Of a stretch of 64,000 nucleotides of DNA, positions 20,476-25,103 are shown in pieces. Below the pieces are notes generated by a model. It made no database searches. It was not told the DNA's origin and worked only from the letters and a program-made list of their open reading frames with translations. The stretch is from a virus. Location of the stretch: the IMG/VR virus record IMGVR_UViG_3300029258_005088; one strand, written 5' to 3'. Positions within the stretch are counted from its first letter, which is position 1. The number at the start of each line of letters is the position of its first letter. The position numbers and the translations under genes were made by a program.

Positions 20476-20494
20476 GGATTTTCAAGTGATAGCT

Positions 20495-20530
20495 AAAAAA
20501 AGGAACGGTACCTCCGAAGAGGTCCGTTCC
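20495..20530 (-). terminator. Intrinsic terminator closing the ribozyme-array operon
   Basis: GGAACGG-ACCTC-TTCG-GAGGT-A-CCGTTCC followed by T7. Confidence 0.85.
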
Positions 20531-20534
20531 GAGT

Positions 20535-20939
20535 TTATTTGCCTTGAGCAAGCCTCCGTATCCTTGCGGAATGTTCGGCGGCAGACAACAGATGCGCCCA
20601 TAGGATCGTCATCTGTCGCTTGCTCGGGTATCCCATTACGTCATGGAAGTCCAGGTGTTCAGGCGCGTCTGCGATATCCTGCAGAGCGTCGACCAGCCAG
20701 ACCTGCTCATGATCGGTCATTGGCTCGAGGGCCAACGAGGTCTTGGCTACCTCGTGGAGGAATCGTGCTTCCTCCTTGAGGGTCATTCCCTTCGGAATGA
20801 TATCAGCCTCGACCGGGGCCTTAGAGACCTCCGATACCTCGACCGGGGCCTTCTCGGCCTCTTCCGTGGTATTGACGATTACTACGATGCCCGTGATGAC
20901 GAGCAAGACAACGATGATAGCGGTTAGCTTTTTCATCAT
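20535..20939 (-). CDS. Signal-anchored hypothetical protein (last gene of ribozyme array)
   Basis: AAGGAG RBS then MMKKLTAIIVVLLVITGIVVIV; VSKAPVE-type short repeat. Confidence 0.75.
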   Translation of the reverse strand: MMKKLTAIIVVLLVITGIVVIVNTTEEAEKAPVEVSEVSKAPVEADIIPKGMTLKEEARFLHEVAKTSLALEPMTDHEQVWLVDALQDIADAPEHLDFHDVMGYPSKRQMTILWAHLLSAAEHSARIRRLAQGK

Positions 20940-20954
20940 TTCTCCTTGGTTGGG

Positions 20955-21046
20955 GGTTTGAGCACTATTAGCCGGACTCACGCAGGGAAGGAGCCCTGCG
21001 CTACACCGGACCTCCCGGGCCTATTCCCGGGAGGCAGCCTTGCACC
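20955..21046 (-). ncRNA. Twister-sister-like ribozyme, copy 1
   Basis: GGU-GCAAG-GCU...P3(AAUAGG)...CCGG-UGUAG-[hairpin, CUCCUU loop]-UGAGU-CCGG...AGU-GCUCA-A-ACC; predicted cut 20960/20959. Confidence 0.75.
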
Positions 21047-21894
21047 TACTTGCAGTAAAGGACTGCACACCTATCCACCAGCTCCACCAGTTCCTCCAGG
21101 GGAAGGAGGCTGTGGGTGGAGGCCGTGAATCCGCCCTGATGGACGAACTTCACTCGATCATCCAGACGGACCTTTCGGAAGTCAAGGCCCAACTCGTCGT
21201 AGCGATACAACGAGTAACCGGATCCCCTGGTATCGGGTGTGATCGTGAACCCGATATCGGGGTGGAACCTTCGACGGAACTGATCCATCCCGAAGGCTCC
21301 TCTCTCCATGCCGTTGACGGCGGGCATGAAGAGCCCGGAGAGGCCGGCTGCCTGGACTAACTGCGAATGGTTCGCGTAGTCCTCCATGCGTCGGTCCAGA
21401 TGAGCTACGTGGCTGAAGAGATTCTCTCCGAGCCTCTTCAAACACTCCCATACGAAGTCTCCCGGTCTGATGACCTGGTGGCTTCCGAACTCATCCAGAA
21501 GCCATGACTCGATGGGATTGCTCATCAAGCAGCCGACCAGCTTGGCCGTGCCGATATTTGCCCACTGGGCCACACCGGCATTCCCCTTGTTATCCCGAAT
21601 AATCTTCGGGATATACCAGCCGAAGGCGTCTTGGAACGCCCTCGACATATCCATGGCCGACAGGACCATGGAGAAACAACAGTCCGTGGACGTCACTCCA
21701 TGGTGATCATAGTTGTTTCTCCAGGGCTCCCAGAGCCCTCCTTCGTCGAGAACCCATACGCTGGGGTCCTCGAGCTCTTCGGCCGTCGGCTCTCGCCGCT
21801 CTATGCGATCCACGCTAGTTGTATGGATCACGTCGGCACAGGCCTTCATCTCGTCGAAATGGGCCTTTCCATCGTGGGTCACTATGTAAGACAT
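21046..21894 (-). CDS. MYG1/UPF0160-like DHH-superfamily hydrolase (exonuclease-like)
   Basis: VTHDGKAHFDE, VLDEGG, YDHHG, FVHQGGF. Confidence 0.75.
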   Translation of the reverse strand: MSYIVTHDGKAHFDEMKACADVIHTTSVDRIERREPTAEELEDPSVWVLDEGGLWEPWRNNYDHHGVTSTDCCFSMVLSAMDMSRAFQDAFGWYIPKIIRDNKGNAGVAQWANIGTAKLVGCLMSNPIESWLLDEFGSHQVIRPGDFVWECLKRLGENLFSHVAHLDRRMEDYANHSQLVQAAGLSGLFMPAVNGMERGAFGMDQFRRRFHPDIGFTITPDTRGSGYSLYRYDELGLDFRKVRLDDRVKFVHQGGFTASTHSLLPLEELVELVDRCAVLYCK

Positions 21895-21913
21895 AGTTTA
21901 CTCCTTGGTTGGG

Positions 21914-22005
21914 GGTTTGAGCACTTTTAACCGGACTCACGCGGAGGAAGGAGCCTCCGCGCTACACCGGACCGGGAGCCCTATTGCTCCCGGCAGCCTT
22001 GCACC
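21914..22005 (-). ncRNA. Twister-sister-like ribozyme, copy 2
   Basis: Same core; P3 CCGGGAGC/GCUCCCGG; predicted cut 21919/21918. Confidence 0.75.
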
Positions 22006-22006
22006 G

Positions 22007-22330
22007 CTATACCCTGCTCATGTAAAGCATGAGCCTGCCGTCCCGTATGACTGGACGGCTGCTCTCGACCCTGCGAATGTCTCTTTCCCAGACGAACGCA
22101 ACGGGTTCCGGAAGGGGTATGTCTTCCGGAGCTACCCGAGGCTCAGTCTCGAAGATGTCTTCGAGCTGGTCCTCTACCGCCTGCTCGTACCGCTCCCGAC
22201 GGTACTGAGCTCTGAGGTAGACCTCGAATCGATCCCGGGAAAAGATCCGATACTGGCCGAAACTGGTTCTCACCAGCTTCCCGGTCGTGTGGTTGTCCCG
22301 GCGTTTGTGTTTCACGCTCTTTGGCGACAT
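22007..22330 (-). CDS. Hypothetical protein (array gene)
   Basis: ATG 22330 after AAGGAG; the ORF-track extension runs into the repeat. Confidence 0.7.
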   Translation of the reverse strand: MSPKSVKHKRRDNHTTGKLVRTSFGQYRIFSRDRFEVYLRAQYRRERYEQAVEDQLEDIFETEPRVAPEDIPLPEPVAFVWERDIRRVESSRPVIRDGRLMLYMSRV

Positions 22331-22350
22331 AAGGATCCTCCTTGGTTTGG

Positions 22351-22443
22351 GGTTTAAGCACACTTATTCGGACTCACGCGGAGGAAGGAGCCTCCGCGCT
22401 ACACCGATCCCCCCGGGCCTATCCCGGGGGGCTGCCATGCACC
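22351..22443 (-). ncRNA. Twister-sister-like ribozyme, copy 3 (GCUUA variant)
   Basis: P2 GCA/UGU and P4 UCGG/CCGA compensatory changes; predicted cut 22356/22355. Confidence 0.7.
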
Positions 22444-22478
22444 ACTAGGCCTTTTAACGTCCTGCCCAGGACATGGGT

Positions 22479-22739
22479 CTATACTGTCCCGACAAGCCTG
22501 TCGAGCCTACCCGGACTCGTGAAGTGGGTGCGTTCCTTCGCACCCTCCACGCGGTTGCCGTACTGGTCGCATTCTACGACCGTTACCTCCCACAGACCAT
22601 CACTGCCCGGGTCGAACGAGACCACCAAGCTATGGTTCTCCCAGTAATGACACCACAGAATGTTTCCTGGTTTGAACCACTCATCCACCGGCATCTCAGC
22701 CGGGCCGGGAAGGTCTTGTCTTTCGATTGCAGTCATCAT
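22479..22739 (-). CDS. Hypothetical protein (array gene)
   Basis: ATG 22739 after AAGGAG. Confidence 0.7.
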   Translation of the reverse strand: MMTAIERQDLPGPAEMPVDEWFKPGNILWCHYWENHSLVVSFDPGSDGLWEVTVVECDQYGNRVEGAKERTHFTSPGRLDRLVGTV

Positions 22740-22759
22740 AGCAATCCTCCTTGGTTTTG

Positions 22760-22850
22760 GGTTTAAGCACACTTATTCGGACTCACGGGAATTAAGGAGC
22801 TTCCCGCTACACCGATCCGGACGCCCTATTGCGTCCGGCTGCCATGCACC
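22760..22850 (-). ncRNA. Twister-sister-like ribozyme, copy 4 (GCUUA variant)
   Basis: P3 CCGGACGC/GCGUCCGG; insert stem CGGGAA/UUCCCG with CUCCUU; predicted cut 22765/22764. Confidence 0.7.
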
Positions 22851-22885
22851 GCTAGGCCTTTTAACGTCCTGCCCAGGACACGGGT

Positions 22886-23302
22886 CTACGCAGTCTTGAC
22901 CTCCTTCGGCAACAGACTGAAGTTCCCCTGGCGGATATTCCAGTCCACCAGCTTAACTATCTGATCCGGGAGAAGCCGCTTACCGACTCCGGATTCTACG
23001 ACGGCCACACAATCCCTCTTCCTTACGGGAGGAGGATTGTCACGATGCCAGTCGTAGAAGTGCTCGTACACGAGAGGGTCTGTGACCGACTCGTGAAAAG
23101 CACTGATGAGGGAGCGGCCACTGTGCTCTATCTCAGCACAGTCTGCGTAATACCCCAGAGTGAACCGACGGCCGGAGTACTCCAGTTTGGAGAACAGCTC
23201 CTCGAAGAGCGTCTCCACGACCTTCGTGTTCTGCTGCCGGAGTTCTTTCTTCATGCTGGGCCGTTCCTCGGCCAGCGCCAACAGTTCTTGGAACCTGTCC
23301 AT
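22886..23302 (-). CDS. Hypothetical protein (array gene)
   Basis: ATG 23302 after AAGGAG. Confidence 0.7.
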   Translation of the reverse strand: MDRFQELLALAEERPSMKKELRQQNTKVVETLFEELFSKLEYSGRRFTLGYYADCAEIEHSGRSLISAFHESVTDPLVYEHFYDWHRDNPPPVRKRDCVAVVESGVGKRLLPDQIVKLVDWNIRQGNFSLLPKEVKTA

Positions 23303-23320
23303 AACTATCTCCTTGTTGGG

Positions 23321-23404
23321 GGTTTGAGCACTTTTAACCGGACTCGGGCGGGGGAAGGCCCCCCGCCCTACACCGGACCTGCTAAATGCAGGCAGCCATG
23401 CACC
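23321..23404 (-). ncRNA. Twister-sister-like ribozyme, copy 5
   Basis: Short P3 CCUGC-AUUUA-GCAGG; insert stem GGGCGGGG/CCCCGCCC; predicted cut 23326/23325. Confidence 0.72.
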
Positions 23405-23508
23405 CTGCAAAGCCACTCCGTTACAAGCATCCCTGGGAGTCTCCAGGCCTTGTACGGGTATTGCGCGGCAATGCGTATGGGAGTTTAACGTCCTATCCCG
23501 GGACGGAC

Positions 23509-24048
23509 CTAGCAGGTGCTAGGCCGGAACGACTTCAGGGCGGCCTCTCTGGCCGGGTCTCCCTTGGCATCGTTCTTGAGGGCCTCAAGGGCCTCGTCCC
23601 CTGCCTTGAGCACTCGGTAATCATCCGAGAACGAATAATACCAATCCATCTTCTGCAGACGGACCAGGTACTCCTCGTCGCATACCAAAGGCTCTTTTTC
23701 GGGCTCTTCCTCGGGCTCTTCCTCAGGCTCTTCCGACTCCCGTATAGGGGGCCTGAAGGCGTCGACGAAGGATTTGAAGATGCCTGGCTTATCGCCTTTC
23801 TTCTTCGCCTTCGCCTTCGCCTTTGCCTTCGGACGGACGAGAATACTCTCGCCCAGCACGAATCTGCCCAGAGCCTGGGGGACGTCGTTGGGGGCTTCCC
23901 AGACGTCCTCGACGAAGACCGACAGGACACCCACGCCGGGGTGTCTGTTGGCGAACTCGAGCTCGGCCTCTTCCCTCGAAGAGGCGGCGGGGATTCCTAG
24001 ATGGCCGTGTTGGCCAGTGGAATCGTCATACCAGTTTACGATGAACAT
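23509..24048 (-). CDS. Hypothetical protein with KAKAKAK and EEPEEEP low-complexity tracts (array gene)
   Basis: ATG 24048 after AAGGAG; C-terminal DWYYSFSDD. Confidence 0.7.
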   Translation of the reverse strand: MFIVNWYDDSTGQHGHLGIPAASSREEAELEFANRHPGVGVLSVFVEDVWEAPNDVPQALGRFVLGESILVRPKAKAKAKAKKKGDKPGIFKSFVDAFRPPIRESEEPEEEPEEEPEKEPLVCDEEYLVRLQKMDWYYSFSDDYRVLKAGDEALEALKNDAKGDPAREAALKSFRPSTC

Positions 24049-24067
24049 GGTAATCTCCTTGGTTTGG

Positions 24068-24159
24068 GGTTTGAGCACAATTAACCGGACTCACGCGGAG
24101 GAAGGAGCCTCCGCGCTACACCGGACCTGTGACCCTATTGTCACAGGCTGCCTTGCACC
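24068..24159 (-). ncRNA. Twister-sister-like ribozyme, copy 6
   Basis: P3 CCUGUGAC/GUCACAGG; predicted cut 24073/24072. Confidence 0.75.
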
Positions 24160-24198
24160 GCTCGGGTAGATTAACGTCCTCCCCAGGACGGTTGTGCC

Positions 24199-24585
24199 TC
24201 AGACGAGCTCGTGCTCGTAATCGGCGTATTCCCACAGGTCCTTGGACTCGGAGTTCATATCGAAATCCACCTTCGTCAGTTCCTGGAGGAACCGGATCAA
24301 CCGGTTCCAGTAACGGAACTTGAAGCCTTCATAAGACATCGTCTCGAAGGTCTTAGACTCCTTGAACCCTGTACGGGACAGGGTCCTGGCGGACTCCTCG
24401 TGAACGGTGACGAACGTAAGCGTGTCCGTCGTTCCTTTCAGAGGAGGGGTTATGAGGGCGCAACGATCGATCAGCTTGTGACCGATCAGGATGCTCTCCT
24501 CGTTTACCCTGGACCGACCTGCGATCCATCCCGTGCCGATGAGTTCACGATTGATTCCGTCGATGAGCAGTTGATTAGCTGCCAT
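24199..24585 (-). CDS. Hypothetical protein (array gene)
   Basis: ATG 24585 after AAGGAG. Confidence 0.7.
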   Translation of the reverse strand: MAANQLLIDGINRELIGTGWIAGRSRVNEESILIGHKLIDRCALITPPLKGTTDTLTFVTVHEESARTLSRTGFKESKTFETMSYEGFKFRYWNRLIRFLQELTKVDFDMNSESKDLWEYADYEHELV

Positions 24586-24605
24586 AGGATATCTCCTTGG
24601 TTTGG

Positions 24606-24696
24606 GGTTTGAGCACAATTAACCGGACTCACGCGGAGGAAGGAACCTCCGCACTACACCGGACCGAGGACCCTATGCCCTCGGCTGCCATGCACC
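24606..24696 (-). ncRNA. Twister-sister-like ribozyme, copy 7
   Basis: P3 CCGAGG/CCUCGG; insert loop UUCCUU; predicted cut 24611/24610. Confidence 0.75.
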
Positions 24697-24698
24697 GC

Positions 24699-24878
24699 CT
24701 ACGTCCAGTCTTTGACGGCAGACCGGAGGAAGCCGTTTTCGACTTCTCTGCGCTTACGCGACAGAAAGGAGTCGAAACTCTCCTTTGGCTTATTTTGTTC
24801 CTCGCGACGGTTGTCACGCCTGCGTCTGGCGTGCGCCGATCGAAGACCGTTCCAAGCCTGCTCTGACCACTGACTCAT
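24699..24878 (-). CDS. 59-aa basic protein, first gene of the array (not in ORF track)
   Basis: AAGGAGG RBS; MSQWSEQAWNGLRSAHARRRRDNRREE...KDWT*. Confidence 0.7.
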   Translation of the reverse strand: MSQWSEQAWNGLRSAHARRRRDNRREEQNKPKESFDSFLSRKRREVENGFLRSAVKDWT

Positions 24879-24928
24879 GTGTACCTCCTTCTGTTTTGGG
24901 GTTATGTGTTGTGTAGAGCACTCGATTA

Positions 24929-24937
24929 ATTATGCCA
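24929..24937 (-). promoter_or_regulatory. Candidate extended -10 promoter for the array
   Basis: TG-G-CATAAT immediately after a terminator; no clear -35. Confidence 0.4.
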
Positions 24938-24938
24938 C

Positions 24939-24972
24939 AAAAAACCCCCGAATTAAGGTCTAAATCGGGGGT
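24939..24972 (-). terminator. Intrinsic terminator
   Basis: ACCCCCGA-13 nt-TCGGGGGT followed by a T run. Confidence 0.7.
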
Positions 24973-25044
24973 AATCATCCGACCCGAAGGGGGGTCCCCG
25001 GGGCCTGGAAAAGTGAATACGCATTCAGTTTTCAAGACGTAGCT

Positions 25045-25079
25045 AAAAGAAAAAACGAGCCGGCCCGAAGGCCGACCCG
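25045..25079 (-). terminator. Intrinsic terminator
   Basis: GGGTCGGCC-TTCG-GGCCGGCTC followed by GTTTTTTCTTTT. Confidence 0.8.
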
Positions 25080-25103
25080 CTGCGCTGAGGTTGGAGGCTT
25101 AAC

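Follow-up and report, generated by a model that had tools for sequence, protein, structure and literature searches.

Seven intergenic elements on the minus strand of a 64-kb stretch of viral DNA (the whole stretch analyzed, referred to here as the window) probably belong to the twister-sister (TS) ribozyme class as a structurally divergent variant, and as such would cut an operon into single-gene mRNAs. That they are catalytic, where they cut, and how cutting would affect mRNA stability and translation are inferences.

Seven repeats in an eight-gene transcription unit

The elements are 84 to 93 nucleotides (nt) long and lie 409 to 959 nt apart. A covariance model built from the seven copies found exactly these seven in the 64-kb window, with scores of 88 to 114 bits, and gave no eighth match there at an E value of ≤10. 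The original prediction had placed seven elements on the minus strand, one between each pair of eight co-directional genes; its coordinates proved exact, the covariance model returned these elements alone, and each copy lies between two minus-strand open reading frames (ORFs) (Table 1). The shared core that it described holds for the most part, except that the U given before YCGG is an A in copies 3 and 4, and the 5'-OH ends that it proposed (20959, 21918, 22355, 22764, 23325, 24072, and 24610) are consistent with our alignment.

Table 1. Features of the operon and its surroundings (positions in the window)
Feature	Position	Strand	Remarks
Intrinsic terminator	25054–25081	−	Closes the upstream operon
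Second hairpin with U-run	about 24939–24972	−	
Candidate extended −10 promoter of the unit	24929–24939	−	TGTGGCATAAT; putative, read from sequence
Eight-gene transcription unit	20535–24878	−	Called genes
ORFs, first four	24878–24699, 24585–24199, 24048–23509, 23302–22886	−	
ORFs, last four	22739–22479, 22330–22007, 21894–21046, 20936–20535	−	21894–21046 is MYG1-like (PF03690)
Copy 7 (predicted ribozyme)	24606–24696	−	GCAUG/GCUCA; inserted-hairpin (P5) loop UUCCUU; 103 bits; predicted cut 5' of A24610; stop codon of upstream gene 2 nt before P1
Copy 6 (predicted ribozyme)	24068–24159	−	Canonical GCAAG/GCUCA; P5 loop CUCCUU; 112 bits; predicted cut 5' of A24072
Copy 5 (predicted ribozyme)	23321–23404	−	GCAUG/GCUCA; P5 loop GCCUU; 88 bits; predicted cut 5' of A23325; short P3; P1 of 4 bp
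Copy 4 (predicted ribozyme)	22760–22850	−	GCAUG/GCUUA; P4 UCGG/CCGA; 92 bits; predicted cut 5' of A22764
Copy 3 (predicted ribozyme)	22351–22443	−	GCAUG/GCUUA; P4 UCGG/CCGA; 106 bits; predicted cut 5' of A22355
Copy 2 (predicted ribozyme)	21914–22005	−	Canonical GCAAG/GCUCA; 114 bits; predicted cut 5' of A21918; stop codon of upstream gene 1 nt before P1
Copy 1 (predicted ribozyme)	20955–21046	−	Canonical GCAAG/GCUCA; 92 bits; predicted cut 5' of A20959; first P1 base overlapped by UAG of upstream gene
Module 2	22444–22476	−	Hairpin GUCC-UGGGCA-GGAC, GUUAA, strand able to pair with the loop
Module 2, other copies	22851–22883, 23475–23507, 24161–24193		
Intrinsic terminator	20494–20530	−	GGAACGG..CCGUUCC, then U7; immediately 3' of the eighth gene
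Next promoter-like site	20475–20447		Beyond the eighth-gene terminator

Terminators bound the eight-gene unit on both sides, no internal terminator was found within it, and its internal promoter-like sites did not exceed the number expected by chance. The GGCATAAT motif of the candidate promoter is kept in a related phage, L233. Each gene of the unit except the first is preceded by an element and an A/C-rich leader with AAGGAG, the sequence after each copy being AAACCC(C)(A/C)AAC(C)AAGGAG and then ATG. The leaders after the seven copies are 100% A/C, and 20 to 25 nt separate the predicted cut and the ATG in all seven, in agreement with the leader length first proposed. The first gene has its own leader, ACCCCAAAACAGAAGGAGG, which is similar to these post-cleavage leaders.

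Since the operon runs from promoter to terminator without an internal terminator, a long transcript, starting from the promoter near 24930 and ending at about 20500, would be cut into eight single-gene mRNAs, either co- or posttranscriptionally, by RNA that cleaves itself at the Y^A step of GCUY^A. The downstream pieces would then start with a 5'-OH and an unstructured A/C-rich leader of 20 to 25 nt with AAGGAG, and the upstream pieces would retain the folded ribozyme as a 3' end with a 2',3'-cyclic phosphate. Four upstream pieces would also retain at this end a small pseudoknot-like module (module 2), which at 22444 to 22476 fills the interval from the stop codon to ribozyme copy 3. Module 2 scores 34 to 43 bits, with just these four copies in the window and one more in L233. 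It was also considered as a pistol ribozyme and rejected: no Rfam pistol match was obtained at an E value of ≤10 in 20800 to 24900, and the module consists only of the hairpin, GUUAA, and the loop-complementary strand, with P1 of the TS-like element directly after.

Proposed fold and correspondence to the twister-sister core

In the proposed fold, a P1 of 3 bp (GGU/ACC) would be followed by an L1 loop of GCAWG opposite GCUYAA, a 3-bp P2, and a three-way junction bearing a covarying P3 hairpin and P4. The junction is three-way because the canonical P5 is missing. The loop of P4 appears to be the TS SL4 sequence, G-UGUA..AGU-C, broken at its tip: between the two A residues of SL4 stand a hairpin of 23 to 25 nt and one G, which would put the inserted hairpin between the equivalents of A33 and A34, the residues between which A7 of L1 intercalates in the TS crystal structure.

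This fold is the minimum-free-energy structure in six of the seven copies. Across 29 pairs, 98% of the cells are paired versus 84% in shuffles, a level that none of 500 shuffles reached, and 11 pairs show double-sided changes, which bears out the stem covariation noticed originally. The double changes affect six pairs of P3; in P2, four copies have A-U and the other three U-A at column 13/85, and P4 has C-G in five and U-A in two. No intact homologues were found outside this genome, so the covariation rests on seven related copies of one genome.

The copies match the TS core residue by residue. Published TS structures have an L1 of G5-C6-A7-A8-G9 opposite G59-C60-U61-C62^A63-U64 and an SL4 of G29-U30-G31-C32-A33-A34-G35-U36-C37 (PMC5660989). 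All seven copies contain GCAWG, G-UGUA(insert)AGU-C, and GCUYAA in the TS order and with the same flanking helices, and the in-order mapping to TS in the original prediction accords with the published structures and the Rfam consensus in L1, SL4, helix order, and leader. All unpaired nucleotides invariant in canonical TS are present in order except U64, which is A in 7/7 copies. The 5' strand of L1 is GCAAG in three copies (1, 2, and 6) and GCAUG in the other four (3, 4, 5, and 7), and the 3' strand is GCUCA in five copies and GCUUA in two; G5, C6, G9, G59, C60, U61, and A63 are invariant, as are the SL4 flanks G-UGUA and AGU-C. Among 29 positions invariant in 13 diverse canonical TS, 20 to 21 are identical in the copies, six P1/P2 positions have changed as compensating pairs, one G-C has become G-U, and one (U64) has become A.

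Variation among the copies is confined to positions where TS tolerates change. A8U has partial activity in TS and a relative activity of 0.8 in the LINE-1 ribozyme, C62U is active, and GCUUAU occurs in 2 of 131 natural canonical TS. U64 is U in all 131, and a G.A pair replacing G5.U64 is the state of the active LINE-1 and OR4K15 ribozymes, as well as of env-33 in the TS alignment, as the LINE-1/OR4K15 paper reports. The pair equivalent to C12-G56 (the partner of G35 in the four-way structure) is A-U or U-A in the copies, and the junction C for the G27-C14 contact of the three-way structure is missing, the first junction base being G; therefore, one tertiary contact must differ or be absent. 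The SL4 insertion occurs in none of the 131 canonical TS, loci chosen by a scan pattern that required a contiguous loop, and we found in the literature no documented precedent for a hairpin inserted in the T-loop-like turn of SL4.

A descriptor built from the literature, and written after the sequences had been seen, matched 7/7 copies and 131 canonical TS loci, with no match in 244 Mb of dinucleotide shuffles or in 1 Mb of unrelated viral DNA. The chance rate of L1, P1, and P2 alone was 1.3 per Mb, and the SL4 part was present in 0.2% of shuffled inner segments. The TS-like reading first put forward holds for motif and architecture, whereas covariance models of TS do not detect the copies. 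The alignment to the Rfam TS model that had been proposed as a check failed: RF02681 gave no match at the gathering score (34 bits) on the window and none at an E value of ≤10 on 4.1 kb or on a single 126-nt copy, although canonical TS in IMG/VR score 72 to 88 bits with this model and the same tool. A model from 13 canonical TS, run with filters off, ranked no copy in the window and gave on one copy a 5.9-bit local match out of register; the seven-copy model likewise gave weak, out-of-register matches on canonical TS. This indicates that the elements are a divergent variant and not a catalogued TS member. No non-catalytic family matched the copies better, so the combination that the original prediction had named as a refutation, a failed alignment to the TS model together with a better non-catalytic match, did not arise either.

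Alternative readings and the inserted hairpin

We consider it unlikely that the elements are TS-derived or TS-mimicking structures that no longer cleave and remain as structured intergenic modules, in which the folded body would stabilize the 3' side of the upstream cistron or be a site for a host or phage RNase, and the anti-Shine-Dalgarno (anti-SD) loop would adjust how strongly the following gene is translated. The failure of canonical-TS models to recognize the copies, the changed partner in one tertiary contact, the 3-bp P1, and the interrupted SL4 would all fit such a loss, and the conserved SD-complementary loop on a variable stem offers a non-catalytic reason for selection; however, neither the invariance of every catalytic L1 nucleotide in 7/7 copies nor the confinement of variation to tolerant positions would be explained. 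Besides, the L1 loop and two stems suffice for cleavage by the minimal LINE-1 and OR4K15 ribozymes, and losing a peripheral contact therefore need not abolish activity.

Self-cleavage through a fold unrelated to TS, in which the likeness of L1 and SL4 is convergent and the elements form a new ribozyme class, seems improbable. It accords with the absence of similarity to TS at the covariance-model level, and the 4x4 internal loop UGUA/GAGU, which has helices on both sides, could, as read from the sequence, be a loop-E or sarcin-ricin-like stack that would continue P4 into the inserted hairpin. Nevertheless, about 27 of the 29 positions invariant in canonical TS can be matched in order and canonical TS arrays have the identical genomic context, which makes common descent the simpler explanation. 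Hardly probable at all is that the repeats act as DNA, as integron attC-like cassette recombination sites or as promoter/leader units of a phage RNA polymerase with an incidental RNA fold: one repeat accompanies each small gene, the genes are unrelated orphans, and the same slot in the related phage holds two genes and only one decayed copy, indicating that gene content between repeats is fluid, but compensatory changes keep a three-way RNA junction rather than an attC-type long imperfect hairpin, the bases that never vary are those of the unpaired TS core, promoter-like sites are at chance level, and inter-repeat recombination can be a by-product of any repeated element.

Under the preferred reading of the elements as TS ribozymes, the hairpin grafted onto SL4 might be the working part of a natural ribozyme-gated ribosome-binding site, although we regard this as doubtful. 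Its loop is conserved and its stem variable, and the loop CUCCUU, identical in sequence to the 16S anti-SD, complements the AAGGAG downstream, with 6 bp predicted between loop and SD; this complementarity makes possible a ribosome-site lock released by cleavage. The partner of the loop would be the next gene's AAGGAG, which lies about 10 nt past the 3-bp P1. Before cleavage, this pairing would both fasten the substrate strand, itself weakly held, to the ribozyme and mask the SD. Cleavage would make the pairing intermolecular, whereupon the leader would drop off and translation could begin, restricted to processed single-gene mRNAs. In synthetic biology, ribozyme switches have been engineered with the ribosome-binding site hidden in a ribozyme stem. 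Here, too, an anti-SD would lie inside a predicted self-cleaving ribozyme and face the SD of the gene beyond the cut, but those switches are artificial hammerhead designs, whereas this pairing is predicted only.

If cleavage occurs, the copies widen the known range of TS sequences and structures in four respects: the SL4 turn, which docks on the active site, contains an inserted helix; an L1 of the four-way type is combined with a three-way junction; G.A stands in place of G.U; and P1 has 3 bp. They would also show that current covariance models miss such variants, so that censuses of phage ribozymes are probably undercounts. The role of bacterial and phage self-cleaving ribozymes in gene expression is an open question for all of them (PMC6765202). 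Seven copies in one operon provide a natural series for testing the role of ribozyme processing in phage gene expression, and the complementarity of loop and SD is a concrete, testable link from cleavage to translation.

Comparison with known systems

The elements share with TS (RF02681) the order P1-L1-P2-P3-P4(SL4)-P2'-L1'-P1', an L1 of GCAAG/GCUCA (unchanged in three copies, 1, 2, and 6), the flanks G-UGNA and AGY-C of SL4, putative cleavage at a C/U^A step near the 3' end, and a position between small phage genes read in the same direction, with an A/C-rich leader, an SD, and a start codon downstream. TS structures include a four-way junction (PMC5660989) and a three-way-junction form, 5T5A, described in the same paper. 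Unlike TS, the copies have the 23- to 25-nt hairpin in SL4, a 5-nt linker (NUAAN) instead of P5, a 3-bp P1 of GGU/ACC rather than CCC/GGG, a P2 of GCW/WGU, A for U64 in 7/7, and U for A8 in four. They resemble the LINE-1 and OR4K15 ribozymes in the 3' L1 strand GCUCAA, the G.A pair replacing G5.U64, and the A-to-U change opposite U61, which is tolerated there. However, those ribozymes lack SL4 and a junction, cleave slowly (about 0.1 per min), and either are eukaryotic or were obtained by selection from fragments, whereas the copies keep P3, P4, and an SL4-like loop.

The operon layout is ordinary for the TS class and already common in phage DNA. The original prediction knew of no phage operon built in this way, but arrays of four to six canonical TS are common in IMG/VR contigs (e.g., L192, L202, and L198), with the same per-gene leader layout and a spacing of 270 to 1,500 nt, and a 2011 paper described clusters of hammerhead ribozymes that flank single genes in prophages (Perreault et al.; PMC3088659). 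In IMG/VR, 110 of 131 canonical TS have an SD and a start codon downstream, and the leader from P1 to the SD is 84% A+C versus 50% in the background. As in the hammerhead and canonical TS arrays, for which cutting of long phage transcripts into mRNAs of gene length has likewise been proposed, a single co-directional operon would hold several ribozymes, each belonging to one gene or a short block of genes. Canonical TS arrays often include RAGATH-5, whereas no second ribozyme class is interspersed here. Unlike those arrays, this operon carries seven copies of one uncatalogued variant, placed before every gene after the first.

Organization and fold of the seven intergenic elements

We confirmed that seven elements of 84 to 93 nt lie on the minus strand at exactly the coordinates of the original prediction, from copy 1 (20955-21046) to copy 7 (24606-24696), and that, as was also claimed, one of them stands between each pair of co-directional open reading frames, with a near-identical leader after all seven. 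The sequence 3' of each element is a nearly identical run of A and C only, followed by AAGGAG and then ATG, which places the start codon 20 to 25 nt from the predicted cut. R1, a covariance model of the seven copies, detected them at 88 to 114 bits and gave no further match in the 64-kb window.

Given seven copies, the proposed structure has good support. Its 29 pairs are paired in 98% of cells, a value that none of 500 column shuffles equaled (84% in the shuffles); two-sided changes occur at 11 of the 29, and pairing falls to 29 to 51% when the partner columns are slid by 1 to 3. Furthermore, the three-way junction is the minimum-free-energy structure in six of the seven copies. RNAalifold picked a P2 register different from that of the original prediction, and the latter is right, since the covariation of columns 13 and 85 is perfect (A-U in four copies and U-A in three). 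An SL4-like hairpin loop formed by GGUGCAAGGC in its own right was rejected, given this perfect covariation and a would-be closing stem that is not conserved. Besides, an AUAGG motif persists in the P3 loops of six copies out of seven (e.g., 21976-21982), while the P3 stem changes completely; the motif may make a tertiary contact or may plainly reflect recent common descent.

Coordinates of features in the window and in L233, a locus of a related phage
Feature	Position	Strand	Remark
Strong intrinsic terminator	25081-25054	-	Ends upstream operon
Second hairpin with U-run	~24972-24939	-	Ends upstream operon together with the preceding terminator
Eighth gene, end	20535	-	Terminator 20530-20494 directly after, then new promoter-like site
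Array gene 7	21046-21894	-	MYG1-like product (PF03690)
Module 2 copies	22444-22476, 22851-22883, 23475-23507, 24161-24193	-	3' of the stop codon, ahead of four ribozymes
Additional non-coding bases (~70)	23405-23474	-	Separate module 2 from ribozyme copy 5
UUUUAGCUAnnnCUUGAAAA motif	25040-25060, 20480-20500	-	After intrinsic terminators, at both ends of ribozyme operon
Module 2 in related phage	L233:9545-9577		
UUUUAGCUAnnnCUUGAAAA motif in related phage	L233:8600-8615, L233:9905-9925		Complete at one of the two sites
tRNA gene in related phage	L233:8753-8896		Slot of operon start

The two upstream hairpins are followed by an extended -10-like sequence, TGTGGCATAAT, the core of which (GGCATAAT) is kept in the related phage. 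With terminators at both ends, no terminator-like sites inside the unit and no internal promoter-like sites above chance, the eight genes and seven elements are predicted to form one transcript of ~4.4 kb. The encoded proteins are orphans, except for a 282-amino-acid MYG1-like protein, the closest relatives of which are bacterial (29 to 33% identity); one relative with 57% identity was found in a related metagenome contig. The motif UUUUAGCUAnnnCUUGAAAA is shared by both ends of the operon and by L233, and may serve as punctuation or as a promoter particular to this phage group.

Four of the ribozymes are preceded by a small hairpin element, module 2, in which the hairpin GUCC-UGGGCA-GGAC is followed by an invariant GUUAA and then by a strand able to pair with the hairpin loop over 4 to 5 bp. 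The loop pairings (GGGC/GCCU, GGGA/UCCC, and GGGCA/UGCCC) hint at compensation and at an H-type pseudoknot. Module 2 had no Rfam match and was not found in the canonical arrays searched. The additional bases next to copy 5 are absent from the other copies.

Comparison with the twister-sister class

In the four-way-junction structure of the twister-sister (TS) ribozyme, the catalytic internal loop L1 sets G5-C6-A7-A8-G9 opposite G59-C60-U61-C62^A63-U64, and the P4 loop (SL4) reads G29-U30-G31-C32-A33-A34-G35-U36-C37, with A7 intercalating between A33 and A34 (PMC5660989). On genuine IMG/VR examples, the Rfam consensus is accc-GCAAG-GCC-gA-P3-cc-GCCg-GUGCAAGCC-cGGC-P5-GGC-GCUCAU-gggu, and the seven copies read GGU-GCAWG-GCW-[P3]-YCG-G-UGUA-[hairpin + G]-AGU-C-CGR-NUAAN-WGU-GCUYAA-ACC. 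When compared with the 29 positions invariant in 13 diverse canonical TS, the copies are identical at 20 to 21; another 6 lie in P1 or P2 and are altered as compensating pairs, and the remaining changes are one G-C pair to G-U and U64 to A. Variation between the copies is confined to places that tolerate change in experiments. A8U retains partial activity in TS, and its relative activity in LINE-1-rbz is 0.8 (PMC11620745). C62U is active in TS and is found in nature as well, in 2 of the 131 canonical TS among the IMG/VR matches listed. The LINE-1 and OR4K15 TS-like ribozymes, both active, have a G.A pair instead of G5.U64, as does env-33 in the original TS alignment (PMC11620745). In TS, the contact of G35 is with the C12-G56 pair (four-way form; PMC5660989) or with a junction C (three-way form), whereas the seven copies have A-U or U-A as the equivalent pair and G as the junction base; therefore, one tertiary contact must differ from TS.

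We observed no match to any Rfam ribozyme family at gathering or E<=10 in the 64 kb, in 4.1 kb or in one 126-nt copy, so that the alignment to the TS model (RF02681) proposed as a check in the original prediction was not obtained, even from a single copy. R2, a covariance model built from 13 canonical TS of IMG/VR, ranked no copy at E<=10 in the window with filters off, and on one copy gave only a local match of 5.9 bits, in which canonical SL4 was aligned to the GGUGCAAGG segment. Conversely, R1 gave one 13.9-bit match in register on canonical TS loci with default filters and, with filters off, many matches of 10 to 25 bits on true TS that were out of register, the copies' L1 5' strand falling on canonical SL4 and their 3' end on the canonical leader. 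None of these matches, weak and for the most part out of register, was counted toward homology. As the alignment shows, the models miss the copies because of the 23- to 25-nt SL4 insertion, the lack of P5, the different P1 and P2 sequences, and U64A.

A descriptor comprising P1 of >=3 bp, GCAWG, a 3-bp P2, a 3-bp P4 with GUGNA, 0 to 40 inserted nt and AGYC, GCUYA, and P1' was found in all seven copies (insertions of 23 to 25 nt; linker of 5 nt). No match occurred elsewhere in the 64-kb window, nor in dinucleotide shuffles (244 Mb) or unrelated viral DNA (1 Mb). In IMG/VR loci the descriptor recovered 131 canonical TS among the matches listed. The chance rate of L1, P1 and P2 alone (~1.3 per Mb), combined with that of the SL4 part (0.2% of shuffled inner segments), gives ~4 expected per 10,000 for an independent chance occurrence in the window, a figure that is somewhat optimistic because the descriptor was written with the sequences already seen.

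The twister-sister reading is thus favored by the core and the genomic context but missed by the family model and by R2. Because of these misses and the altered tertiary contact, we call the seven copies a divergent TS variant, by core and context, rather than a catalogued member. The original interpretation is partly supported. Catalysis by the seven copies is probable.

The inserted hairpin and the ribosome-binding site

The hairpin inserted in the SL4 tip varies in its stem (GGAGG/CCUCC, CAGGG/CCCUG, GGGAA/UUCCC, and GGGGG/CCCCC) and is steady in its loop (CUCCUU in five of the seven copies; UUCCUU and GCCUU in one each). CUCCUU complements the downstream AAGGAG exactly and is also the 16S anti-Shine-Dalgarno (anti-SD) sequence. 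The loop-SD duplex has a predicted energy of -8 to -11 kcal/mol in five of the copies and, in the other two, of about -5 to -6 kcal/mol. True loop-SD covariation is absent because the SD is invariant. It is conceivable, if doubtful, that this pairing acts as a cleavage-activated translation switch and that it also clamps the substrate strand, offsetting the 3-bp P1.

Related phages and ribozyme arrays elsewhere

The window is part of a metagenomic contig of 201,176 bp (ENA ERZ27256770; also Logan SRR14699969), a putative phage from its gene style and TS context. PHROG matches were few (PAPS reductase-like, methyltransferase, and unknowns); there were none for four large proteins encoded beyond the start of the window, the largest of which had no match in a phage collection. 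Pattern scans of viral, metagenome and genome contigs yielded no other intact copy (none, or chance or coding matches only), and protein-based searches in IMG/VR yielded no relatives. Two related phages, besides L233, were found in SRR14699985 and SRR21856590. In L233, with 59% identity in the neighboring 393-amino-acid protein, the first gene and module 2 are retained in the same slot, together with a single decayed ribozyme copy, of which the 5' 47 nt remain; this copy has lost the equivalents of G35 and G59 as well as P1 and folds differently. A GCGAAAGC mini-hairpin follows directly after UGUA in this copy, and then comes the sequence bearing CUCCU, which is kept along with AGGAG downstream. 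L233 has two genes in the slot, whereas the window has eight; therefore, gene content between the repeats is fluid, as would be expected if the repeats promote recombination too. The L233 tRNA gene carries a ~73-nt insertion in the anticodon region, scores 38 bits with the Rfam tRNA model and was not called by ARAGORN.

A pattern scan of IMG/VR for canonical TS gave >112 loci, seven of which hold 25 Rfam-confirmed TS; several loci have four to six, often interspersed with RAGATH-5. A pattern for canonical TS with a three-way junction matched nothing in IMG/VR beyond a coding-sequence coincidence. RAGATH-5 RNAs (50 to 65 bits) are regularly interleaved with the TS arrays of L121, L128, L148 and L173, and L192 has a DUF3800-VIII RNA besides its canonical TS. 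Among the matches listed, an SD and start codon lie 3' of 110 of the 131 canonical TS, the leader from P1 to SD is 84% A+C (background, 50%), and the array spacing of 270 to 1,500 nt corresponds to one small gene per ribozyme. Six successive TS in L202 leave near-identical leaders.

Clustered hammerheads were likewise reported to flank single prophage genes by Perreault et al. in 2011; cleavage of every copy was shown in 2-kb transcripts, and processing to gene-length mRNAs was proposed (PMC3088659). A 2019 review repeated the processing idea for twister and hammerhead ribozymes, stressing that the purpose was still unknown (PMC6765202). In view of the canonical TS arrays in IMG/VR and these published prophage clusters, the claim of an undescribed phage operon design does not hold, and the layout itself is not new. 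The context of the seven elements is identical to that of canonical TS arrays, which is further evidence of their functional kinship with TS.
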